DNA from: a virus
Lineage: Duplodnaviria; Heunggongvirae; Uroviricota; Caudoviricetes
Reading direction: 5' to 3' (one strand)
DNA length: 38,011 nucleotides
Virus record (IMG/VR): IMGVR_UViG_2585427747_000001
Coordinates: 1 to 38,011 of that record
Both the position numbers and the translations under genes were made by a program. The notes beneath the pieces were generated by a model, which was given only the letters and a program-made list of their open reading frames with translations, did not search any database and was not told the DNA's origin. Position 1 is the first letter of the stretch, and every line of letters starts with the position of its first letter. Shown piece by piece: positions 9,000 through 37,881 of this stretch.

Positions 9000-9322
9000 C
9001 GACGTTAACTCAATGCCAGCAGCAGGTGCTGGATATGCTGATTTCTTACCAGAAAGAACGGGGCTTCCCGCCAACCAATCAGGAGGTGGCAACCATGCTG
9101 GGATATCGTTCGGTGAATGCAGCGGTAGAGCATCTTCGCGCACTGGAGAAAAAAGGCGTCATCACGATAAAGCGTGGCGTGGCCCGGGGGATAACGCTTC
9201 ATACCGCGGTCAAGGACGACGACAGCGAGGCGGTCGGGATTATCCGCGCACTGCTTGCCGGTGAGGAAAACGCCAGGCTGCGTGCGACCCACTGGTTACA
9301 TGAGAGGGGCATGAAAGTATGA
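8996..9322 (+). CDS. Stand-alone LexA N-terminal DNA-binding-domain protein (no peptidase domain)
   Basis: LTQCQQQVLDMLISYQKERGFPPTNQEVATMLGYRSVNAAVEHLRALEKKGVI closely follows the LexA winged-HTH pattern; only 108 aa, so no S24 domain. Confidence 0.65.
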   Translation: MTTLTQCQQQVLDMLISYQKERGFPPTNQEVATMLGYRSVNAAVEHLRALEKKGVITIKRGVARGITLHTAVKDDDSEAVGIIRALLAGEENARLRATHWLHERGMKV

Positions 9323-9708
9323 AGCTGATTCTGCCTTTTCCGCCCAGCGTGAACACGTACTGGCGACACCCCAACAAAGGGGCGTTTGCAGGTAAAAGCC
9401 TGATAAGCGAGGCGGGGCGAAAATTCCAGAGCGCGGCGTGCGCAGCAATAGTTGAGCAGTTACGTCGTCTGCCGAAACCAACGTCGGCACCTGCTTCAGT
9501 GGAGATCGTGTTGTTTCCTCCAGATAACCGGATCCGCGATCTGGACAACTATAACAAGGCTCTGTTTGACGCCCTGACCCACGCGGGTGTGTGGGAAGAC
9601 GACAGTCAGGTGAAAAGAATGCTGGTGGAGTGGGGACCGGTTATCCCGGAAGGGAAGGTCGAGATCACTATCAGTAAGTACGAGAAAACGGCGGGTGCAG
9701 CCGCCTGA
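9319..9708 (+). CDS. rusA: RusA-family Holliday junction resolvase
   Basis: Conserved RusA pattern (PPSVNTYWRH…, …RDLDNYNKALFDALTHAGVWEDDSQV…); 129 aa. Confidence 0.8.
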   Translation: MKLILPFPPSVNTYWRHPNKGAFAGKSLISEAGRKFQSAACAAIVEQLRRLPKPTSAPASVEIVLFPPDNRIRDLDNYNKALFDALTHAGVWEDDSQVKRMLVEWGPVIPEGKVEITISKYEKTAGAAA

Positions 9709-9727
9709 TTAAGAGGAGAAACGAAGT

Positions 9728-10525
9728 ATGAATAATCTGATGGTCATTGATGGTATTGAAGTTCGTCGTGATGCTTATGGTCGTTACAGCCTGAACGATC
9801 TGCACAGGGCTGCCGGTTCTCTGGATAAGCATAAGCCTGCATTCTGGCTCCGCAATGAGCAAACTGAACGTTTAATAAGCGAGTTGCAGATTTGCAACTC
9901 GGTCAATATAGAGCCAGTTAACGTTATTCGTGGCGGAAATAACCAGGGGACGTATGTCTGCAAAGAACTGGTGTATGCCTATGCAATGTGGATCAGCCCG
10001 TCATTCCATCTGAAGGTGATCCGTACTTTCGACATGGTAACCAGCGCACCTGAAAAATTATCCGGACAGGCTGCTGACAAGATGCAGGCTGGCGTGATTC
10101 TGCTGGACTTTATGCGCCGGGAATTAAACCTGTCTAACTCATCAGTGCTTGGTGCCTGTCAGAAACTCCAGGAGGCTGTTGGCTTACCGAATCTGGCACC
10201 GCGCTATGCCATTGATGCTCCTGCTGACGCGCCTGATGGCTCAAGTCGCCCCACGCTGTCGCTGAGTGCACTGCTGAAACAGTATGGTATCCGCCTGACG
10301 GCTAATCAGGCATATCACCAGATGGTGAAGCTGGGGATCGTCGAGCAGCGCGAACGATACAGCCGTACCGCGATTAACAACATCAAAAAATTCTGGTCGC
10401 TGACAGCGAAAGGCTGCATGTTCGGCAAGAACATCACCAGTCCCGCAAATCCGCGCGAGACGCAGCCGCATTTCTTCGAATCCCGATTCCCTGAGCTGTT
10501 AAAGCTGCTCGATACCGTTCATTGA
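9728..10525 (+). CDS. KilA-N domain protein (antirepressor-like)
   Basis: N-terminal KilA-N-like region (IDGIEVRRDAYGRYSLNDLHRAAG…AFWLRNEQTERLISEL). Confidence 0.65.
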   Translation: MNNLMVIDGIEVRRDAYGRYSLNDLHRAAGSLDKHKPAFWLRNEQTERLISELQICNSVNIEPVNVIRGGNNQGTYVCKELVYAYAMWISPSFHLKVIRTFDMVTSAPEKLSGQAADKMQAGVILLDFMRRELNLSNSSVLGACQKLQEAVGLPNLAPRYAIDAPADAPDGSSRPTLSLSALLKQYGIRLTANQAYHQMVKLGIVEQRERYSRTAINNIKKFWSLTAKGCMFGKNITSPANPRETQPHFFESRFPELLKLLDTVH

Positions 10526-10526
10526 G

Positions 10527-11522
10527 GTGACCGTGAGAGCACTACTGACTCCTGAAATTGCCCCGCGTATGGGGATCGTATTGTTCAGGCCAGGTTCAGA
10601 GCTGATGCCCCTGTTTATGCAGGGGCGTGTCCTGCTGGAGCCTGAGCCGGAACGTTATTCATCTTTTGCCAGTGGTGCCGTTCCGGCGGTATCACAACCG
10701 CTGGCGGATGATCCTGCCGTTCGGGGCGTGTTCCGCAATGAGGCAGTGATCCGTCGTGCTGGTGGCGTGGAATGTCTTGAAAGCTGGTTACTTCGTGAAA
10801 AGGGCTGTCAGTGGCCTCATTCCGACTGGCACAGCGAGAACATGACCACAATGCGGCACGCGCCGGGCGCAATCCGTCTGTGCTGGCACTGCGATAACCA
10901 GTTGCGCGATCAGTTCACGGAACGGCTGGAATCAATGGCAACGGATAACTGTGCCCGCTGGGTATTGTCTGTTGTGCGTCGGGATCTCGGTTTTGATGAC
11001 AGTCACGTTGTGACAATGCCGGAACTGTGCTGGTGGCTGGTTCGTAATGACCTGGCGGATGCCTTACCGGAAAGTGCAGCCCGTAAGGCACTGAGATTAC
11101 CGAAGCCTGTTGTGCCGTCTGTCACCCGGGAAAGTGACCTTGTGCCTTCGGTTCCTGCCACCAGCATCATCCAGGATAAGGCGAAAAAGGTGCTGGCGCT
11201 GAAAGTGGATCCGGAGTCGCCGGAGTCTTTTATGTTACGCCCAAAACGTCGCCGCTGGGTTAATGAAAAGTACACGCGCTGGGTTAAGACACAGCCGTGT
11301 GCATGTTGTGGAAAGCCTGCTGATGATCCCCACCACCTGATAGGCCACGGTCAGGGTGGGATGGGTACAAAAGCGCATGACCTCTTTGTGTTGCCTTTGT
11401 GCAGAAAGCATCACGACGAGCTGCATGCGGATACCGTGGCATTTGAAGAGAAGTATGGCTCCCAGCTGGAGCTGATATTTCGTTTTATCGATCGTGCGCT
11501 GGCAATTGGCGTGCTGGCCTGA
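10527..11522 (+). CDS. DUF968-family prophage protein with a C-terminal Cys/His (HNH-like) cluster
   Basis: C-terminus CACCGKPADDPHHLIGHGQGG…LPLCRKHHDELH; typical position before Q in lambdoid prophages. Confidence 0.6.
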   Translation: MTVRALLTPEIAPRMGIVLFRPGSELMPLFMQGRVLLEPEPERYSSFASGAVPAVSQPLADDPAVRGVFRNEAVIRRAGGVECLESWLLREKGCQWPHSDWHSENMTTMRHAPGAIRLCWHCDNQLRDQFTERLESMATDNCARWVLSVVRRDLGFDDSHVVTMPELCWWLVRNDLADALPESAARKALRLPKPVVPSVTRESDLVPSVPATSIIQDKAKKVLALKVDPESPESFMLRPKRRRWVNEKYTRWVKTQPCACCGKPADDPHHLIGHGQGGMGTKAHDLFVLPLCRKHHDELHADTVAFEEKYGSQLELIFRFIDRALAIGVLA

Positions 11523-11539
11523 TTTTGTGGAGAAAGTTG

Positions 11540-11890
11540 ATGCGTGATATGTATGAAGTATTGGACCGCTGGGGAGCATGGGCTGCAGCAGATAACAGTG
11601 GCGTGGACTGGCAGCCGATAGCAGCAGGCTTCAAGGGGCTTTTACCTCATGGCAAAAAGTCACGGATTCAGTGTGATGATGACGAAGGCATTATGATAGA
11701 CAGTTGTGTGGCTCGGTTGAGAAGGTATAAACCAGAGGAATATGAGCTCATCATAGCCCACTTTGTTATTGGTATCTCATTACGCACTATTGCCAAAAAG
11801 AGAAGGTGTTCAGATGGCACGATTAGAAAGGAATTGCAAACTGCAATTGGTTTTGTAGAGGGTATTACGAGCGTTATTGCATGTAAATAA
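11540..11890 (+). CDS. Late-gene antiterminator Q (QuuD-type)
   Basis: MRDMYEVLDRWGAWAAADNSGVDWQPIAAGFKGLL… closely parallels QuuD-type Q proteins; start trimmed to the internal Met. Confidence 0.75.
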   Translation: MRDMYEVLDRWGAWAAADNSGVDWQPIAAGFKGLLPHGKKSRIQCDDDEGIMIDSCVARLRRYKPEEYELIIAHFVIGISLRTIAKKRRCSDGTIRKELQTAIGFVEGITSVIACK

Positions 11891-11892
11891 AA

Positions 11893-11925
11893 GTTAAAAG
11901 CCACCGTAGTGGCTTTTAACTTTTT
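11893..11925. terminator. Strong hairpin (12-bp stem gttaaaagccac/gtggcttttaac, cgta loop) plus T-run just after the Q stop; candidate bidirectional terminator
   Basis: Read directly from the sequence. Confidence 0.65.
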
Positions 11926-12096
11926 AGGATTGTGCAGGTAATGTTTTGTTCAATTTAGTAAAGAAGTTAGATTGGCTTGTTACAGTACGTCGACTCTTTC
12001 CAGAAGTACTCAACTGAAAGAAATCATTGATGCTTTTGGGTTGAGTTCTTTCATAGGCTTGCTTAAGTGACATGTGTTCCCCTTGTCTATTTGTTG

Positions 12097-13380
12097 CTAT
12101 GACCGTGAAAAGTAGTGATGGTTCAGTTCTTTTGCAAAATAGTGCTTACGTTTAACCCAGATAAAACCATCAGCTTTAGAAATGATTGCAACATCTATGG
12201 GGCCTCCCACTGTTTCAGTATCATCGGAGACCTTGCGCTTGAAAGCGGTTAAATTTACTAATGATTCAGCCATATAAGCTAAATCTTGCTTGGGTAAAAA
12301 CTCGATCATATTTACGACTTTGTCAACATAGTTTTCTCGGACAAAGCTATCAATACGCCCCTTGCAATCGGAAACAGTCCTGCGCACTACATCAACTATA
12401 GCATCCTTGGCTCCTTCGATATCTGAAGTGGGCACCAAATCTGTGATTACTGAATCAATACCATCAAGTAAATCGCCGATAGAACGTTGATACTCAGCAT
12501 GAAGATTTTGGATAAGATGTGAACTAGCTCCTTGCATGAAAGCAGAAACTTCATCCTCTTGCGCAAAGGGAGTCACTCCGCAATTAGGAGTGATGCAGCA
12601 CTTGTCAGCATCTGTGGTTTTCCTGATTTTATCATTAAAGAAGCCACAAACTTCATATGATAATACTTTAGGGTAATAGTCTTTATCGCCATAACCTGCA
12701 ATCACAATCCCAGAGACGGAACCAATATCACTTTGCTTGCATATCATAGCTGCCAATACATCACTAACTGCTTTTGTCAACTGTGGAGTTATGGATATTG
12801 AATCAAAGTCACTAAACTTTTGAGCAATGATGCGTTGGGTAACTGATGAAGCATAGGTTTGGGCTGCTTGTTCATCATCCGGAGTAAAACCATCAAAGTA
12901 ATTAATATCAGATAATTTTGTAAGGAGATCGTTGCAATAATTCGTGAGGTCTGTAACAAATTGATTCTTATCGAAGTTAACGAAATATGTTGGTTCGAGA
13001 CCTTCAGAAAAAGCATCAACAAGCATGCTGAATACAATCTCGCTCAGGAAGTGATAAAGATGAGCCTCACGCATACCTGGTGTGATGATTGATTTAGCCG
13101 ACTGTAGATAATTGAAGAAATCCTCAGCATATTCCTCCAAAGAGTCAAAACATTTAGAGCCTAAATCCTTTCTATAAGCCTTAATGATAAGCTCCCATGG
13201 AGCTGTGCAGAGATCACCAGTTCCATATACCATCAAACCTACAGGATGATGTTTAGTTAGAGCGAAAAGCTTTTCAGCGCCATTATAGATTTTATGTTTG
13301 CCGCCTCCAGAAATCGTTACAGCTGAATCTGCGGCTAAAGCTACTGCGGTCTTGTTAAATACGGCTATTTCTGCTGTCAT
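12097..13380 (-). CDS. Proteasome/HslV-like Ntn-hydrolase-domain protein (427 aa); AT-rich accessory gene in the Q-to-lysis slot
   Basis: N-terminus MTAEIAVFNKTAVALAADSAVTIS…VGLMVYGTGD mirrors HslV (Thr after the initiator Met, Asp at mature position 17, downstream Lys); C-terminal GGPIDVAIISKADGFIWV resembles the proteasome beta C-terminal strand; opposite strand to its neighbours; visibly low GC. Confidence 0.6.
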   Translation of the reverse strand: MTAEIAVFNKTAVALAADSAVTISGGGKHKIYNGAEKLFALTKHHPVGLMVYGTGDLCTAPWELIIKAYRKDLGSKCFDSLEEYAEDFFNYLQSAKSIITPGMREAHLYHFLSEIVFSMLVDAFSEGLEPTYFVNFDKNQFVTDLTNYCNDLLTKLSDINYFDGFTPDDEQAAQTYASSVTQRIIAQKFSDFDSISITPQLTKAVSDVLAAMICKQSDIGSVSGIVIAGYGDKDYYPKVLSYEVCGFFNDKIRKTTDADKCCITPNCGVTPFAQEDEVSAFMQGASSHLIQNLHAEYQRSIGDLLDGIDSVITDLVPTSDIEGAKDAIVDVVRRTVSDCKGRIDSFVRENYVDKVVNMIEFLPKQDLAYMAESLVNLTAFKRKVSDDTETVGGPIDVAIISKADGFIWVKRKHYFAKELNHHYFSRS

Positions 13381-13488
13381 TTTTTACATAGGGTTTATAT
13401 GTTGTGTAATGAGAAAAATACAAAAAAATTAACGCGTACGCAAAAATTCTTGTAATCTGTTAAGAGTGGTTACTTCGCCACACAGCTT

Positions 13489-13519
13489 AAACCCGTCTTC
13501 GAGCGGGTTTTGTCGTTTC
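13489..13519 (+). terminator. Hairpin aaacccg…cgggttt followed by a T-rich tract upstream of the lysis genes; candidate tR'-like terminator/antitermination target
   Basis: Read directly; lies between the accessory gene start and the holin. Confidence 0.4.
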
Positions 13520-13662: not shown

Positions 13663-13989
13663 ATGCCTCATAACCCAAATACCTGGCTGGAGTTGGTCCA
13701 GAGCTGGTGGCGTGGAGACACACCGCTGGGCGCAGTGATTATGTCGATCGTTATGGCTGGCTTGCGCATTGCCTATTTTGGCGGTGGTGGTGGCTGGAAA
13801 CGAAAAACGCTCGAGATTTTGCTCTGTGGTGCTCTGACGCTGACTTTTGCATCCGCTCTTGAGTATGTCGGATGGCCTAAATCTCTTTCTGTTGCCATTG
13901 GTGGCGGCGTTGGGCTGATCGGTGTCGATGCTATTCGTGGGGCTGCAATGCGAGTAATCGGTAACAAATTTGGTAGCTCGAAGGAGTAA
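13663..13989 (+). CDS. Holin (lambda S-like class I)
   Basis: 108 aa with hydrophobic segments and a charged C-terminus; directly upstream of the R-like endolysin. Confidence 0.75.
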   Translation: MPHNPNTWLELVQSWWRGDTPLGAVIMSIVMAGLRIAYFGGGGGWKRKTLEILLCGALTLTFASALEYVGWPKSLSVAIGGGVGLIGVDAIRGAAMRVIGNKFGSSKE

Positions 13990-15002: not shown

Positions 15003-15370
15003 CTCGAGTTATATTTTTCATTATCGTTGCGAATGCTCCTAATAAAGCTGTGTATTATGGTAATTTTATAAAGCCTATGGGTTTAAGTTCAGATGCTAGC
15101 GTTTTTATAGCGTAATGTAGCAGCTTACATAAAATATGCATCGTGATTAACTATTAGGCCAACCTTTTGGACCAATATGAAAGTGGAAGTTTATACAAAT
15201 CGTTTGTCGATGATTAAACATGTGTCTAGTAGCGCTAGTCATGAACAGGTTTATTACGTATCATTTTGTGTAGATTATCGAGAGTACAACTAGTAGAGCA
15301 GCTAATCTTTAGATAGTGCCAGTGATGTTCACTTGCGATAAACTAACCTTTTCATTCAGTGGAGGTTATT

Positions 15371-15805
15371 ATGTGGCATACATTACTTAACTGGCCTTGG
15401 GGAACTGTGTGGTCAGCTGTATCGGCTTTAGGTTCAATTGTAACTGTTACATTAGGTTTTTGGGCAATGAATGTTTGGCGGCGACAGGAGGCTCTGAAGG
15501 CCAAAATGGCTCTGAAAATGGCAGTGGCTGATTATTCAAATGCATTATCACAACTACCTTTATCTCTTAGTCGTAATGTTCGTATTGAAAAAAGGGCCGA
15601 GCTACGAGAGTTAAATCATAAATTAAATGCTGTTAATAATGCTTTTTTGATATGCGAACATATGTTGGAAAAATACCCGCGTGTAAACAGCGGTTGTCGT
15701 TCTTTATCTGTTGCCCACAAAGAATATATTAGAATGAGAGATAATAGTATTCAGGCGAAATATATTTGTCATAATATCCTTTCAGAACAGTTTGTATTCA
15801 AATGA
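15371..15805 (+). CDS. Hypothetical membrane protein in an AT-rich island after the lysis cassette
   Basis: N-terminal TM helix (LLNWPWGTVWSAVSALGSIVTVTLGFWAM); GGAGG RBS 5 nt upstream of the ATG; low-GC 930-bp island 15003-15930. Confidence 0.55.
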   Translation: MWHTLLNWPWGTVWSAVSALGSIVTVTLGFWAMNVWRRQEALKAKMALKMAVADYSNALSQLPLSLSRNVRIEKRAELRELNHKLNAVNNAFLICEHMLEKYPRVNSGCRSLSVAHKEYIRMRDNSIQAKYICHNILSEQFVFK

Positions 15806-15932
15806 AAATGAACGATTGGTATTTACTTGCCGTTTATTCATTGGATTGAAAAGTCTATTTAACAAACCGTGTTAAAGCGGTTTCTGATTGCAGTTATGGT
15901 TAGATATTTAACGAAAACTACAGGGGTAATAG

Positions 15933-35412: not shown

Positions 35413-36537
35413 TTAAGATATTCTTTTAGCTATAGAATGACCTATATTTATAAACGGTTTTTCTATTACGTTATATATCAAGTAAGATAGGCTTATAGAA
35501 ATTATGAGCGATGATATATAAATGGCAAACGATCTATGTTCAGTGCTAACACCAATGCTGGAACCGTAAAACTCAATAAACTGTATAACAGGAACATGAA
35601 TCAGATAAAGTGAATATGATATTCCACCAAGAGCAACAAGTGATTTATTGAATGAAATAACTTTATTATTTTCTAGAATAATAACACATAAAACAATCAG
35701 AAATGCAATATATGCAGATCGCGTCAAACCATGTCCTTCAGACACCCCATTAAGCCAAAAAACAAACATCATTCCTAGAATGAAAACGCATAAACTATTT
35801 ATAATAGCATTATTCATTCTTTTATGCCTAAGTAAAGGCATTGTCTCTGATATAATCATCCCTAAAATGAAATCATATACTATAGGGTTGCCTATGAATC
35901 CTATATGAGAAAACACTCCTGTTTTTGCAATATTGAATGATTGGGCGTCAATTACTACCGAGTGGTTAAAGTAAAGAGAAATAATTGTACTTACAGCAAC
36001 TAGAAAACATGATGTGATTAATACCCTGTATTTTATACTTAATGACATGGATATTGCGAAAATAAAATAAAAATATATCTCGTACCCAAGTGACCATGAA
36101 ACAATTAGTGTTCCCCACCCATAATATGGCGGTAGAGTTGAGCCATCTAAAGGGATGAGAAGAAATGATTTTATAATATTATTTATAGAAAAAACACCAC
36201 CCCATGATACGCCTGTGTAAATATTGTGGTAAAAAAGAAAAACATAAACGCTTAATACTATTGCGTAAACAGGATAAATTCTAAAAAATCTCTTTACAAG
36301 AAATGAAGCGGTATTTCTTAAAGATGTTTTCGCTAAGTTTTTAGTTGAGTATGATATTATAAATCCGCTTATTATAAAAAACAATTCAACTCCAAATATA
36401 GCATTCGCGGTTATCCTGTCCATGAAAGAACCAGGATCTACTTGCCCGAAAAGACCTCTATTATGACCAATAGCTACAGCAAGAGCTGCAATTCCACGAA
36501 GCGCTTCTATTCCGTATAATTTATCTGTTTTCATCAA
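35413..36537 (-). CDS. Acyltransferase family 3 integral membrane protein (O-antigen acetylase-like lysogenic conversion gene)
   Basis: 374 aa, ~10 predicted TM segments; N-terminal YGIEALRGIAALAVAIGH motif typical of the OafA/Oac acyltransferase-3 family; very AT-rich; next to the integrase at attR. Confidence 0.75.
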   Translation of the reverse strand: MMKTDKLYGIEALRGIAALAVAIGHNRGLFGQVDPGSFMDRITANAIFGVELFFIISGFIISYSTKNLAKTSLRNTASFLVKRFFRIYPVYAIVLSVYVFLFYHNIYTGVSWGGVFSINNIIKSFLLIPLDGSTLPPYYGWGTLIVSWSLGYEIYFYFIFAISMSLSIKYRVLITSCFLVAVSTIISLYFNHSVVIDAQSFNIAKTGVFSHIGFIGNPIVYDFILGMIISETMPLLRHKRMNNAIINSLCVFILGMMFVFWLNGVSEGHGLTRSAYIAFLIVLCVIILENNKVISFNKSLVALGGISYSLYLIHVPVIQFIEFYGSSIGVSTEHRSFAIYISSLIISISLSYLIYNVIEKPFINIGHSIAKRIS

Positions 36538-36677: not shown

Positions 36678-37835
36678 CTATGATACCTTCTCCTCAAGCC
36701 AGTCCGCCCACCACTGCATCATTTCTCTGCGCTTATCGAGATACTGAGCATGGTTGTAAATACCGCGCACAGATCCGCCGTTGGCATGTGCCAGCTGCAC
36801 TTCAATAGCGTCAGCAGGCCATTCGTGCTCGTTCATAATCGTGCTGAATTCATGCCTGAATCCGTGACCGCTTTCCAGACCTTCATAGCCGATTTGTTTG
36901 ATCACAAGCAATACCGCGTTCTCGCAGATTGGCTTCTTCTTATCGTTGCGCCCGGCAAAAACAAACTCTGAGACTGGTTTGGTGATTGAGCTTAGCGTAG
37001 TGAGAAGTTCAACCACCTGGTCTGACATCGGGACCACATGAATTTTGCGTCCCTTCATCACACTGGCGTCGATGGTGATAATCCTGTTTTCAAAATCGAC
37101 GTTCTTCCATAGCATGGAACGAAGCTCTTTCGTTCTTAGGGCTGTATAACGTAAAACTTTTGTCGCAATGAGCGATACGATACTTCCTGAAAATGTTGCC
37201 AGTGCTTTGTTGAATGCAGGCATCTGGTCTGCTGGAAGGAACGGGAAGTTCTTCTTGCGGTATCCTTTCATGGCGTCTGCAAGGTCAGGTGCCGGGTTAT
37301 ATTTAGCCCTTCCGGTGACAATAGCGTAACGAAAAACCTCGCCGCATCTTCTGCGGGCTTTGTTGGCTCGCTCCATTGCACCGCGATCTTCAAATCTGCG
37401 GATTACTTCCAGCAGTTGCATCGGCTCAATATCCTGAATCTCAAGACCGCCGATGATGGGTAAAATGTCGTCATCAAACATTTTGGCAAGTTCAGTTGCA
37501 TAGCCTACTGACCAGACTTGCTTCTTGTGCTCGTACCATTCCTTGTAAATCGCACTAAATGAATTGTTGTTAGACGAAGCCTTTTTCGCCTTTACCGGAT
37601 CGATGCCAACCGAGATGTCTTTCCTCGCAGTCCATGCCTTATCCCTTGCTTCCTGCAAAGTCATAAGCGGATATTTTCCGACAGTCAGGATTTTCTCCTT
37701 ACCGTCAATCTTGTAGCGAAGCTGCCATACCTTTTTCCCTGATACAGGGACATAAAGGTACAGGCCATTACCATCGAGTAGGCGGTATGGTTTTTCTTTC
37801 GGCTTTGCTGCTTCAATCTGCTTAACGGTGAGCAT
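36678..37835 (-). CDS. intS: Tyrosine integrase (P4-type), IntS-like
   Basis: Start trimmed to MLTVKQIEAAKPKEK…; C-terminal catalytic region (…HGFRHEF…LAHANGGSVRGIYNH…Y); adjacent to attR and the tRNA 3' end. Confidence 0.85.
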   Translation of the reverse strand: MLTVKQIEAAKPKEKPYRLLDGNGLYLYVPVSGKKVWQLRYKIDGKEKILTVGKYPLMTLQEARDKAWTARKDISVGIDPVKAKKASSNNNSFSAIYKEWYEHKKQVWSVGYATELAKMFDDDILPIIGGLEIQDIEPMQLLEVIRRFEDRGAMERANKARRRCGEVFRYAIVTGRAKYNPAPDLADAMKGYRKKNFPFLPADQMPAFNKALATFSGSIVSLIATKVLRYTALRTKELRSMLWKNVDFENRIITIDASVMKGRKIHVVPMSDQVVELLTTLSSITKPVSEFVFAGRNDKKKPICENAVLLVIKQIGYEGLESGHGFRHEFSTIMNEHEWPADAIEVQLAHANGGSVRGIYNHAQYLDKRREMMQWWADWLEEKVS

Positions 37836-37881
37836 GGGTAAAAATCCGGTGGGTAAAATTATTTTATCCACTTTTTACCCG
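37836..37881. promoter_or_regulatory. Three TTTTACCC motifs (two on the minus strand, one on the plus strand) over the intS start/promoter in the attR arm
   Basis: gggtaaaa at ~37836-37843 and ~37851-37858, ttttaccc at ~37873-37880; shared with the attL arm. Confidence 0.4.

Follow-up and report, generated by a model that had tools for sequence, protein, structure and literature searches.

The 38,011-nucleotide window analysed here (the whole of the stretch taken from the IMG/VR virus record IMGVR_UViG_2585427747_000001) carries two adjoining genes, one for a proteasome-beta-type Ntn (Thr1) hydrolase homologue and one for a small partner protein. Together they form a two-gene cargo cassette (moron), acquired horizontally by a lambdoid/SfII-like prophage. 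We propose that it supplies a specific peptidase expressed in the lysogen together with a cognate small ligand, probably for phage exclusion; we give this reading roughly one chance in two, and activity, binding and defence are all inferred. Proteasome homologues are usually seen as housekeeping degradation machines. The original prediction saw the large protein as the leading candidate for an undescribed system, but its family had been catalogued in 2021 by Fuchs, Alva and Lupas (PMC8665760). What we found undescribed is its function, no functional study of the enzyme family having been found in the literature, and its pairing with the small ORF, of which we found no earlier description there.

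The large gene (12097..13380, minus strand; ORF read from the window) encodes 427 aa beginning MTAEIAVFNK. Its product has 6,018 homologous representatives at E<=1e-3, and the family occurs in 348 species genomes or more, which span several phyla and include archaea. A spurious ORF was ruled out by these more than 6,000 homologues and by a dN/dS of about 0.05. The AlphaFold model of the protein (pLDDT 84.5) was used for Foldseek searches, in which the top matches were all proteasome subunits or Anbu; the BFVD viral structure library held no significant match to the model. The predicted structure is an alpha-beta-beta-alpha sandwich with strands S1–S10 and flanking helices H1–H4, and as modelled the fold is decisively proteasome-like. 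The closest structural relatives are ring-forming subunits. HslV, with which the original prediction had aligned the N-terminus, is structurally more distant than 20S beta and Anbu, and no HslU-like ATPase is encoded alongside.

At the sequence level the proteasome likeness is not significant. PF00227 did not match the large protein even at E<=10, and the Pfam and NCBIfam searches returned no family. PHROGs gave a match to a family of unknown function only, and phmmer against the PDB gave spurious matches only. When the family profile was compared with PDB sequences, the matches were marginal, that to the Thermoplasma beta subunit having E=1.5. The proteasome-type fold first read from the sequence is upheld by structure comparison and not by any significant sequence-profile match.

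The N-terminal Thr, Asp and Lys arrangement predicted for the protein was recovered among 317 relatives with identities down to 31%: Thr2 is kept in 315/317, Asp18 in 316/317 and Lys37 in 315/317. The lysine had been located loosely, at about 27–36; a Lys33 equivalent is present and is K37 (mature position 36), and K30 is invariant too. There is no propeptide, and 298 of the 317 relatives start MT[AST]. Methionine aminopeptidase is known to remove Met before Thr, and here it would expose Thr1, as in HslV. A GGPxDVA..SK.DG motif is invariant across the 317 sequences. The proposed likeness of the C-terminal region to a proteasome beta strand was also seen, since the profile match to the Thermoplasma beta subunit is colinear at this motif (GGPiDvAiiskgdGF against GGMIDVAVITRKDGY), but only at the E value given above. 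In the N-terminal stretch of the same alignment, which is negative-scoring and non-significant, D18 pairs with Glu17 and K37 with Lys33 of Thermoplasma beta; the alignment was used for residue register alone. G53 in YGTGD is a candidate equivalent of the oxyanion Gly47, with the register set by eye; it is Gly in 270/317 relatives (~85%), and N, D or S in the others.

The protein was expected to be about twice the size of HslV through large insertions, and two helical ones were indeed found, at about residues 97–218 and 287–360. They are hypervariable, with a conservation of 0.27 versus 0.73–0.85 for the core (residues 1–96, 219–286 and 361–416). In the AlphaFold model, H1/H2 occupy residues 62–94 (62–73 and 81–94) and are followed by helices at 101–214; long helices at 287–360 lie between H3 (275–283) and H4 (364–383), and strands 38–40 and 47–53 are joined by a short loop only. 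HslV (ClpQ), in comparison, is a 175-aa protein that assembles into hexameric double rings and depends on HslU, whereas the large protein has no HslU nearby and matches HslV less well in structure. Compared with the 20S proteasome beta subunit (MEROPS T1), it is twice the size owing to the insertions, and has no alpha subunit, propeptide, ATPase or PF00227 match. The large protein is probably not ring-forming.

Fuchs et al. described 22 new groups of proteasome homologues with extreme sequence divergence, the phage-borne ones including PPH, AAH and PMI-4, and reported no genomic context or co-occurrence for any group; they stated that their search for a context hinting at function had been fruitless (PMC8665760). 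PMI stands for 'Proteasome homolog with Multiple Insertions', and both insertion sites, after H1/H2 and between H3/H4, are given for PMI-3 and PMI-4 alone (PMC8665760). PMI-4, with HDY66466.1 as representative, is abundant and occurs in most bacterial phyla, Euryarchaeota and phages (PMC8665760, Table 1). The large protein most likely belongs to this uncharacterised group, a fit made by features and not by sequence comparison with HDY66466.1. It shares with PMI-4 and PMI-3 the proteasome-like core, Thr1/Asp17/Lys33, the lack of a propeptide and the two insertion sites; its family is likewise abundant, spread across phyla and archaea, and present in phage and satellite records. PPH and AAH show that phages spread proteasome-like genes (PMC8665760), but PPH is compact (~140 aa), and both belong to group I (HslV/BPH-like) and are without insertions. 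PMI-4 as published differs from the family described here in that a near-universal small partner and explicit mobile-cargo positions are now added.

The large gene lies between antiterminator Q (11525–11890; PF06530, E 2e-44) and holin S (13663–13989; PF05106), and is antisense to both. Its GC content, 0.399, is below that of the 5 kb lying left of it (0.532) and of the window as a whole (0.506); the AT-richness and opposite strand noted at the outset are thus correct. So is the assignment to the Q-to-holin cargo slot, for phage SfII holds a different antisense cassette there. Over window positions 11542–13511 the sequence agrees at 98.7% identity with that of another lambdoid prophage, found in ETEC strains; the shared segment has its right end at 13511, and homology to SfII picks up again at ~13419. 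Among 5,426 complete E. coli genomes, the cassette is present in only 9.

The original prediction treated the large gene as standing alone, and missed a 49-aa ORF behind it (11924–12073, minus strand). This small ORF begins 23 nt past the large-gene stop, is preceded by a Shine-Dalgarno sequence AAGGGGA at 12078..12084 on the same strand (direct sequence reading), and encodes a basic, hydrophilic protein, MSLKQAYERTQPKSINDFFQLSTSGKSRRTVTSQSNFFTKLNKTLPAQS. It may be noted that the enzyme and the small gene together take up only ~1.6 kb. The two-gene unit ends in a strong intrinsic terminator (11881..11924, minus strand), a perfect 16-bp hairpin followed by a U-run. In RNA folding it gave a dG of -22.7 kcal/mol (z -7.3), and none of 200 shuffles was as stable. 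The terminator lies directly behind Q and, preceded by an A-run and followed by a T-run, is symmetric, so that action in both directions is probable. The pattern scan for terminators did not list this hairpin because its stem is AT-rich. Upstream of the large gene, the AT-rich region 13381..13511 (minus strand) is expected to hold the cassette's own promoter; a consensus promoter scan found no site in it, and it contains a terminator-like hairpin of the plus strand at 13489–13510.

We consider the small partner gene to be the most informative feature of the locus. Of 183 bacterial and archaeal loci, from E. coli to methanogenic archaea, 178 (~97%) have a small ORF behind the enzyme gene. This count is made up of 101/103 loci from the viral collection, annotated phage and E. 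coli records, encoding contigs and the window, and of 77/80 genome loci. dN/dS is 0.08–0.11 for the small ORF, whose other frames are closed. Large and small ORF alike are genuine genes under purifying selection. The small protein matched no Pfam or PHROG family. Its sub-families follow the clades of the large protein.

Among 123 distinct small proteins, 50 carry [FYW]x3ΦΦP, where 4.1 would be expected and shuffling gave 11 at most. The helix-ΦΦP motif is common to most small-protein lineages and its periodicity is helical, but the window's own small protein is without the canonical ΦΦP. Homology among the sub-families was not established by hhalign: clade B against the cross-phylum consensus gave E 0.06, and the window's clade A gave E 0.0087 at 4.6% probability, in a register other than expected. 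The result for clade C was disregarded, its set holding one consensus-type sequence. Hence, for the window's small ORF only positional equivalence is claimed. The first alignment of small ORFs, with five sequences, looked unrelated, and the motif appeared only with the cross-phylum set.

According to the proposed reading, a promoter belonging to the cassette would drive transcription against the direction of the late phage genes; with this promoter and its own terminator, the cassette would probably be expressed in the lysogen. The helical insertions would cap the active site and probably block closed rings, following the argument of Fuchs et al., who predicted that rings and double rings would be hard to assemble with insertions at these two sites, behind H1/H2 and between H3 and H4 (PMC8665760). 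A capped, non-ring enzyme would be a substrate-specific peptidase and not a bulk degrader. The small protein would be its cognate ligand, bound through an amphipathic helix with the conserved hydrophobic-hydrophobic-Pro motif at its end, and would either regulate the enzyme as a pseudo-substrate or serve as its dedicated substrate. The beneficiary would be the host or the mobile element, most probably by the exclusion of other phages through targeted proteolysis. Such an exclusion or defence system would be a new enzymatic principle in prokaryotic immunity. A bolder form of the idea, which we hold tentatively and regard as doubtful, is that of a two-component system of ancient origin, so far unrecognised, which phages, satellites and islands have spread. 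In it the capped Thr1 enzyme would cut or ligate the linked mini-protein at the conserved ΦΦ-Pro, or be held by it as a pseudo-substrate, and an incoming phage would be stopped by the specific proteolysis or peptide tagging that results. If true, this would be the first case in prokaryotes of immunity or exclusion based on a proteasome homologue, and the second connectase-like specific enzyme in the superfamily.

The tight two-gene layout, with co-varying partners carried by many mobile elements, would also suit a toxin–antitoxin or addiction module. Here the enzyme would be a proteolytic toxin and the small, fast-evolving and probably unstable protein its antitoxin; the module would stabilise the element, with phage protection as a side effect at most. 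Points in favour are the basic and probably disordered nature of the small protein and its dN, about twice that of the large protein. However, three Vibrionaceae loci (L108, L110 and L111) have an intact enzyme gene (MTAEVA..., catalytic residues kept) with a terminator directly after it and no small ORF, and one contig has a premature stop in the small ORF. The partner is therefore not obligatory, which goes against the type II criterion that the toxin is never found alone. Moreover, the enzyme-first order is the rarer one for type II systems, and neither protein matched a TA family or a PADLOC model (0 families of PADLOC-DB v2 at E<=10 for the large protein). We consider an addiction module unlikely.

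Connectase (MJ0548 / Methanosarcina mazei) offers another comparison. It is a proteasome homologue with helical additions and one dedicated substrate, in which a short motif is cut before Pro, and it is a precedent for a monomeric, highly specific, non-degradative enzyme. By analogy, Thr1 of the large protein might attack the small protein at ΦΦ-Pro, as connectase does before Pro in KDPGA, forming an acyl-enzyme and passing the basic N-terminal fragment to a target, or the reaction might serve peptide maturation. The topologies differ, though: connectase has lost H1/H2 and has a two-helix S3/S4 insertion, whereas the large protein keeps H1/H2 and has no S3/S4 insertion. In addition, the window's own partner lacks the Pro motif, and the helical periodicity of the motif fits docking equally well. 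A ligase or tagging enzyme of this kind thus appears rather improbable; a specific ligase or maturase, were it one, could find use in biotechnology, as connectase has.

The positions of the pair in other genomes bear on whom it serves. Besides the antisense site after Q in the window and the ETEC prophage, it was found in the Q–holin region of a Providencia phage, and directly after cI in Klebsiella and Vibrionaceae prophages, which are two unrelated lineages. In P4/PICI-like elements it follows the primase, in Streptococcus satellites it is at the distal end, in a Streptococcus prophage it lies at the lysin–attR end, and in Vibrio it adjoins a type I R-M system. The pair occupies accessory positions of phages, satellites and islands; whether homologues sit in prophage cargo slots had been proposed as a check, and these sites are of that kind. 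It is also present in many bacterial and archaeal chromosomes without phage genes nearby. In the unbiased genome set, the raw neighbour listing held prophage and restriction genes and also housekeeping genes, e.g., CO dehydrogenase in Methanosarcinales. Apart from the small ORF, no neighbour family recurred in more than 4 of the 80 genome loci, so that there is no third conserved gene; most of those 4 loci belong to Vibrionaceae (L137 comes from an unclassified gammaproteobacterial MAG), and a recurring Zeta_toxin match is confined to that group.

Lysogeny and late-region positions could mean that the pair serves the phage itself, a specific protease tuning lysis–lysogeny, induction or host physiology, with a repressor, an anti-repressor or a host factor as possible targets of cleavage. 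The location directly after cI, which in one case overlaps the pair, and that beside Q and lysis genes in three phages, are consistent with this. On the other hand, satellites, small integrative elements and chromosomes without nearby phage genes carry the pair as well, and the window copy runs opposite to the late operon, with terminators insulating it. A phage-serving regulator is accordingly hard to credit. For a lysogen-expressed exclusion system, lambda rexAB and other exclusion morons offer an analogy of position only, as two-gene prophage units after cI or as insulated antisense late-region cassettes; with these there is no sequence or structural relationship. The locus gives a genomic context (a near-obligatory small partner, accessory prophage and satellite slots, and a conserved core with hypervariable caps) that was missing for what is probably the largest new group of Fuchs et al. 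(PMC8665760), and makes of an orphan family a two-gene system open to direct tests.

A self-compartmentalising general protease (HslV/BPH/Anbu-like) carried as a passenger on mobile DNA, with the small ORF as an assembly or gating factor, would accord with the ring-forming habit of the nearest structural relatives. No AAA+ partner was found for the new homologues, and a stand-alone function was thought possible (PMC8665760); likewise, the 148 neighbours scanned here included no recurrent AAA+ unfoldase family, and no HslU-like ATPase lay near the ~180 loci. The insertions, however, are at sites predicted to clash with ring assembly, and their hypervariability is unlike that of a conserved assembly interface, which makes a general protease very improbable. 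A catalytically dead scaffold or a spurious ORF would agree with the missing sequence-profile match to any protease family, but is effectively refuted by the conservation data, that is, by the catalytic residues and the C-terminal motif retained down to 31% identity, the low dN/dS and the number of homologues.

The large gene at 12097–13380 (−) proved to be a real open reading frame, as originally predicted, and its 427-aa product begins MTAEIAVFNK. It is flanked by the antiterminator gene Q (11525–11890, +; PF06530) on one side and the holin gene S (13663–13989, +; PF05106) on the other. Q, holin S, and all the neighboring genes lie on the plus strand, opposite to the large gene. At 0.399, the GC content of the large gene falls below that of the adjacent 5 kb on the left (0.532) and that of the window overall (0.506). 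The window represents a serotype-converting prophage of the SfII/SfV-like type, whose genes include those for a CI-type repressor, KilA-N, and DUF968, together with an HNH-terminase module, an integrase, and an O-antigen acyltransferase. The Acyl_transf_3 membrane acyltransferase (35413–36537, −) adjoins the integrase (36678–37871, −), which is the usual O-antigen-modifying, serotype-converting arrangement in SfII-like phages of Shigella and E. coli.

When the large protein was compared with Pfam (even at E ≤ 10), NCBIfam, and PADLOC, no match was obtained; phmmer against PDB sequences gave nothing meaningful, and PHROGs returned only phrog_5990, of unknown function. An AlphaFold model resting on 49 homologues (pLDDT 84.5, pTM 0.80) was compared with the PDB by Foldseek, where all top matches were 20S proteasome subunits or Anbu (probability 0.9–1.0). 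The secondary-structure order of the model follows the proteasome topology, with two large helical additions, at residues ~97–218 after H1/H2 and ~287–360 between H3 and H4. By this structure comparison, the predicted fold is settled as proteasome-like, as had been proposed from the sequence.

Conservation was assessed in an alignment of 317 distinct relatives (31–100% identity). Thr2 was retained in 315, Asp18 in 316, and Lys37 in 315 of them, bearing out the proposed Thr/Asp/Lys triad, with K37 as the equivalent of Lys33. Lys30, Ser19, Asp396, Lys402, and Gly405 were also essentially invariant, and 298/317 relatives start with Met-Thr-[A/S/T] and have no propeptide. The best match of the family profile to PDB sequences, at only E 1.5, was the Thermoplasma beta subunit. 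The alignment was colinear at both ends, GGPiDvAiiskgdGF pairing with GGMIDVAVITRKDGY. In its N-terminal stretch, which was negative-scoring and non-significant, D18 fell on Glu17 and K37 on Lys33, an offset of exactly one residue (the initiator Met). Judging from HslV and from what methionine aminopeptidase is known to accept, Met would probably be removed before Thr.

Fuchs, Alva, and Lupas (Bioinformatics 2021; PMC8665760) described 22 new groups of proteasome homologues, of which only PMI-3 and PMI-4 (‘Proteasome homolog with Multiple Insertions’) combine a long insertion after H1/H2 with another between H3/H4. Of these two, PMI-4 is the abundant group, with 501 nr90 sequences from most bacterial phyla, Euryarchaeota, and phages (PMC8665760). 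Relatives of the large protein comprised 6,018 cluster representatives at E ≤ 1e-3 and occurred in at least 348 species genomes from almost every bacterial phylum and a number of lineages of archaea, as well as in phage and satellite records. Since insertion sites, abundance, and taxonomic spread match the published description, the large protein is most likely a PMI-4 member, the match being to described features of the group. Hence the original prediction of an undescribed system stands only in part: the family had already been catalogued bioinformatically (PMC8665760), and our literature search found no functional work on it later than that 2021 study, whose authors stated that no genomic context indicative of function had come to light. 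The interest of the locus now comes from a near-universal small partner and an explicit mobile-cargo pattern, for neither of which a description was found.

The partner gene, missed at first reading, is a small ORF of 49 aa at 11924–12073 (−), starting 23 nt past the large-gene stop codon. It is preceded by a Shine–Dalgarno sequence, AAGGGGA, and directly followed by a hairpin terminator (11881–11924, −; perfect 16-bp stem plus U-run, dG −22.7 kcal/mol, z −7.3). An equivalent ORF (34–81 aa, starting ~−40 to +50 nt from the stop codon) was present at almost every locus examined: at 101 of 103 loci from the viral collection, annotated phage and E. coli records, encoding contigs, and the window, and at 77/80 species-representative genome loci, archaea included. 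The two exceptions among the 103 were a nonsense codon and a contig ending at the stop codon. On one viral contig (L060, ~651–800), the small ORF has a premature stop (MNLR*, CAA to TAA), and the large gene is cut by the contig end. No third conserved gene emerged around the 80 loci, no neighbor family occurring at more than 4/80.

The small proteins average 49 aa, with 14.6% Lys, a net charge of ~+4.4, and no hydrophobic segment; Pfam and PHROGs searches gave no match. In the window's clade the small ORF is under purifying selection (dN/dS 0.08–0.11 where dS is measurable), alternative frames are closed, and dN for the small ORF is roughly double the large-gene value. Most non-enteric lineages share the motif S-Φ-x-E-[FWY]-[EQ]-x-x-[FY]-[FYLN]-P-[KSE], whose periodicity is that of an amphipathic helix capped by Pro, followed by a second helix (LG..LA.E.L..I). 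Of 123 distinct small proteins, 50 carry a strict form of this motif, where shuffling predicts 4.1 (shuffle maximum 11). Sub-families track the large-protein clades; profile–profile comparison did not prove their common ancestry, the proteins being too short. The window's copy conserves the blocks LKQxYxRxQPK..DFF and NFFxxL and lacks the canonical ΦΦP (hydrophobic-hydrophobic-Pro), so it is taken as equivalent to the others by position only.

Two hairpin terminators bracket the cassette, the second being a terminator-like hairpin at 13489–13510 (+), just upstream of the holin. The hairpin after Q (11881–11924) is flanked symmetrically by an A-run and a T-run, and would stop transcription arriving from either direction. 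No recognizable Shine–Dalgarno sequence lies upstream of the large gene (13381–13395); the sequence before its ATG, ccctatgtaaaaaATG, is an A-rich leader, and a −10-like TATAAA lies just ~13 nt upstream. These features hint at a very short or leaderless mRNA.

The stretch carrying Q and the cassette (11542–13511) shares 98.7% identity with another, distinct lambdoid prophage that occurs in nine genomes of ETEC and other E. coli, the only carriers among 5,426 complete E. coli genomes. In Shigella phage SfII (L185), the Q–holin slot holds an unrelated antisense two-gene cassette (845–2459, −; SfII_49, 194 aa, and SfII_50, 340 aa, both hypothetical). The slot is an exchange point for antisense cargo. 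Relatives lie between Q/methylase and holin in a Providencia phage, and antisense adjoining the lysis genes in a Stenotrophomonas phage. The gene is directly downstream of cI and co-oriented in Klebsiella Rac-like prophages, and also follows cI in Vibrionaceae prophages. In P4/PICI-like elements of Serratia and Alteromonas it comes after the primase; in Streptococcus it occupies the distal end of satellites and the lysin–attR end of one prophage; and in Vibrio parahaemolyticus its neighbor is a type I restriction system. Among 148 nearest neighbors at 25 unbiased loci were CI, CII, and Q proteins, type I, IIG, and IV restriction enzymes, Hma, PbeA, and PDC candidates, and also ordinary metabolic genes; as raw tallies, these are only suggestive of a defense-island association. 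In three Methanosarcinales/ANME-2 MAGs (L127, L132, L147), the pair directly follows CO dehydrogenase/acetyl-CoA synthase genes (Prismane, CO_dh), and its nearest neighbors include no obvious mobile-element genes; the family is therefore not always on recognizable mobile DNA.

In three Photobacterium and Vibrio genomes (L108, L110, L111; ~9300–11300), the enzyme gene directly follows a phage CI repressor gene (cI stop and enzyme start overlap as TAATG in L111; 10-nt gap in L108) and is closed by an intrinsic terminator, the small ORF being absent. At four loci (L108:11649–12524, −; L110:11523–12482, −; L111:12784–13671, −; L137:8823–9752, +), a Zeta_toxin/AAA_33-like P-loop kinase of ~300 aa adjoins the enzyme gene; it is convergent at three of them and may be a separate neighboring toxin or defense gene.

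Mean top-residue frequency was 0.73–0.85 in the strongly conserved catalytic core versus 0.27 in the two hypervariable insertions, where 0 of 196 positions reached 90% conservation. A conserved effector core, combined with a surface and a small partner that both evolve fast, typifies a specificity or recognition module. Connectase, a proteasome homologue with a helical lid, is a precedent for a monomeric enzyme with one dedicated substrate, cut before Pro. We propose that the cassette has its own promoter, is shielded from late transcription, and is expressed in the lysogen; that Met removal exposes Thr1; that the capped enzyme acts as a specific peptidase with the small protein as cognate ligand, either pseudo-substrate regulator or substrate; and that the result is an accessory function protecting the host, most probably by excluding other phages. 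We put the probability of this whole chain at about 0.5. Fold, catalytic residues, pairing, selection, and cargo positions are established by the data; activity, binding, and defense are inferred. A connectase-like ligase or tagging role is a less probable alternative. The case for a plain toxin–antitoxin module is weakened by the three natural loci (L108, L110, L111) in which the enzyme gene is intact and the small ORF absent. Linkage to cI suggests a regulatory protease serving the phage, a role for which the many contexts outside phages are a poor fit. The two insertions disfavor a ring-forming general protease; at both sites they would clash with ring and double-ring assembly (PMC8665760). 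Conservation excludes a dead enzyme or spurious ORF.

A second AT-rich island (15003–15932; GC 0.36–0.38) separates the Rz/Rz1 region from the HNH-terminase genes. Its ORF at 15359–15805 (+), of 148 aa with a hydrophobic N terminus and no Pfam match, looks like another cargo (moron) gene.
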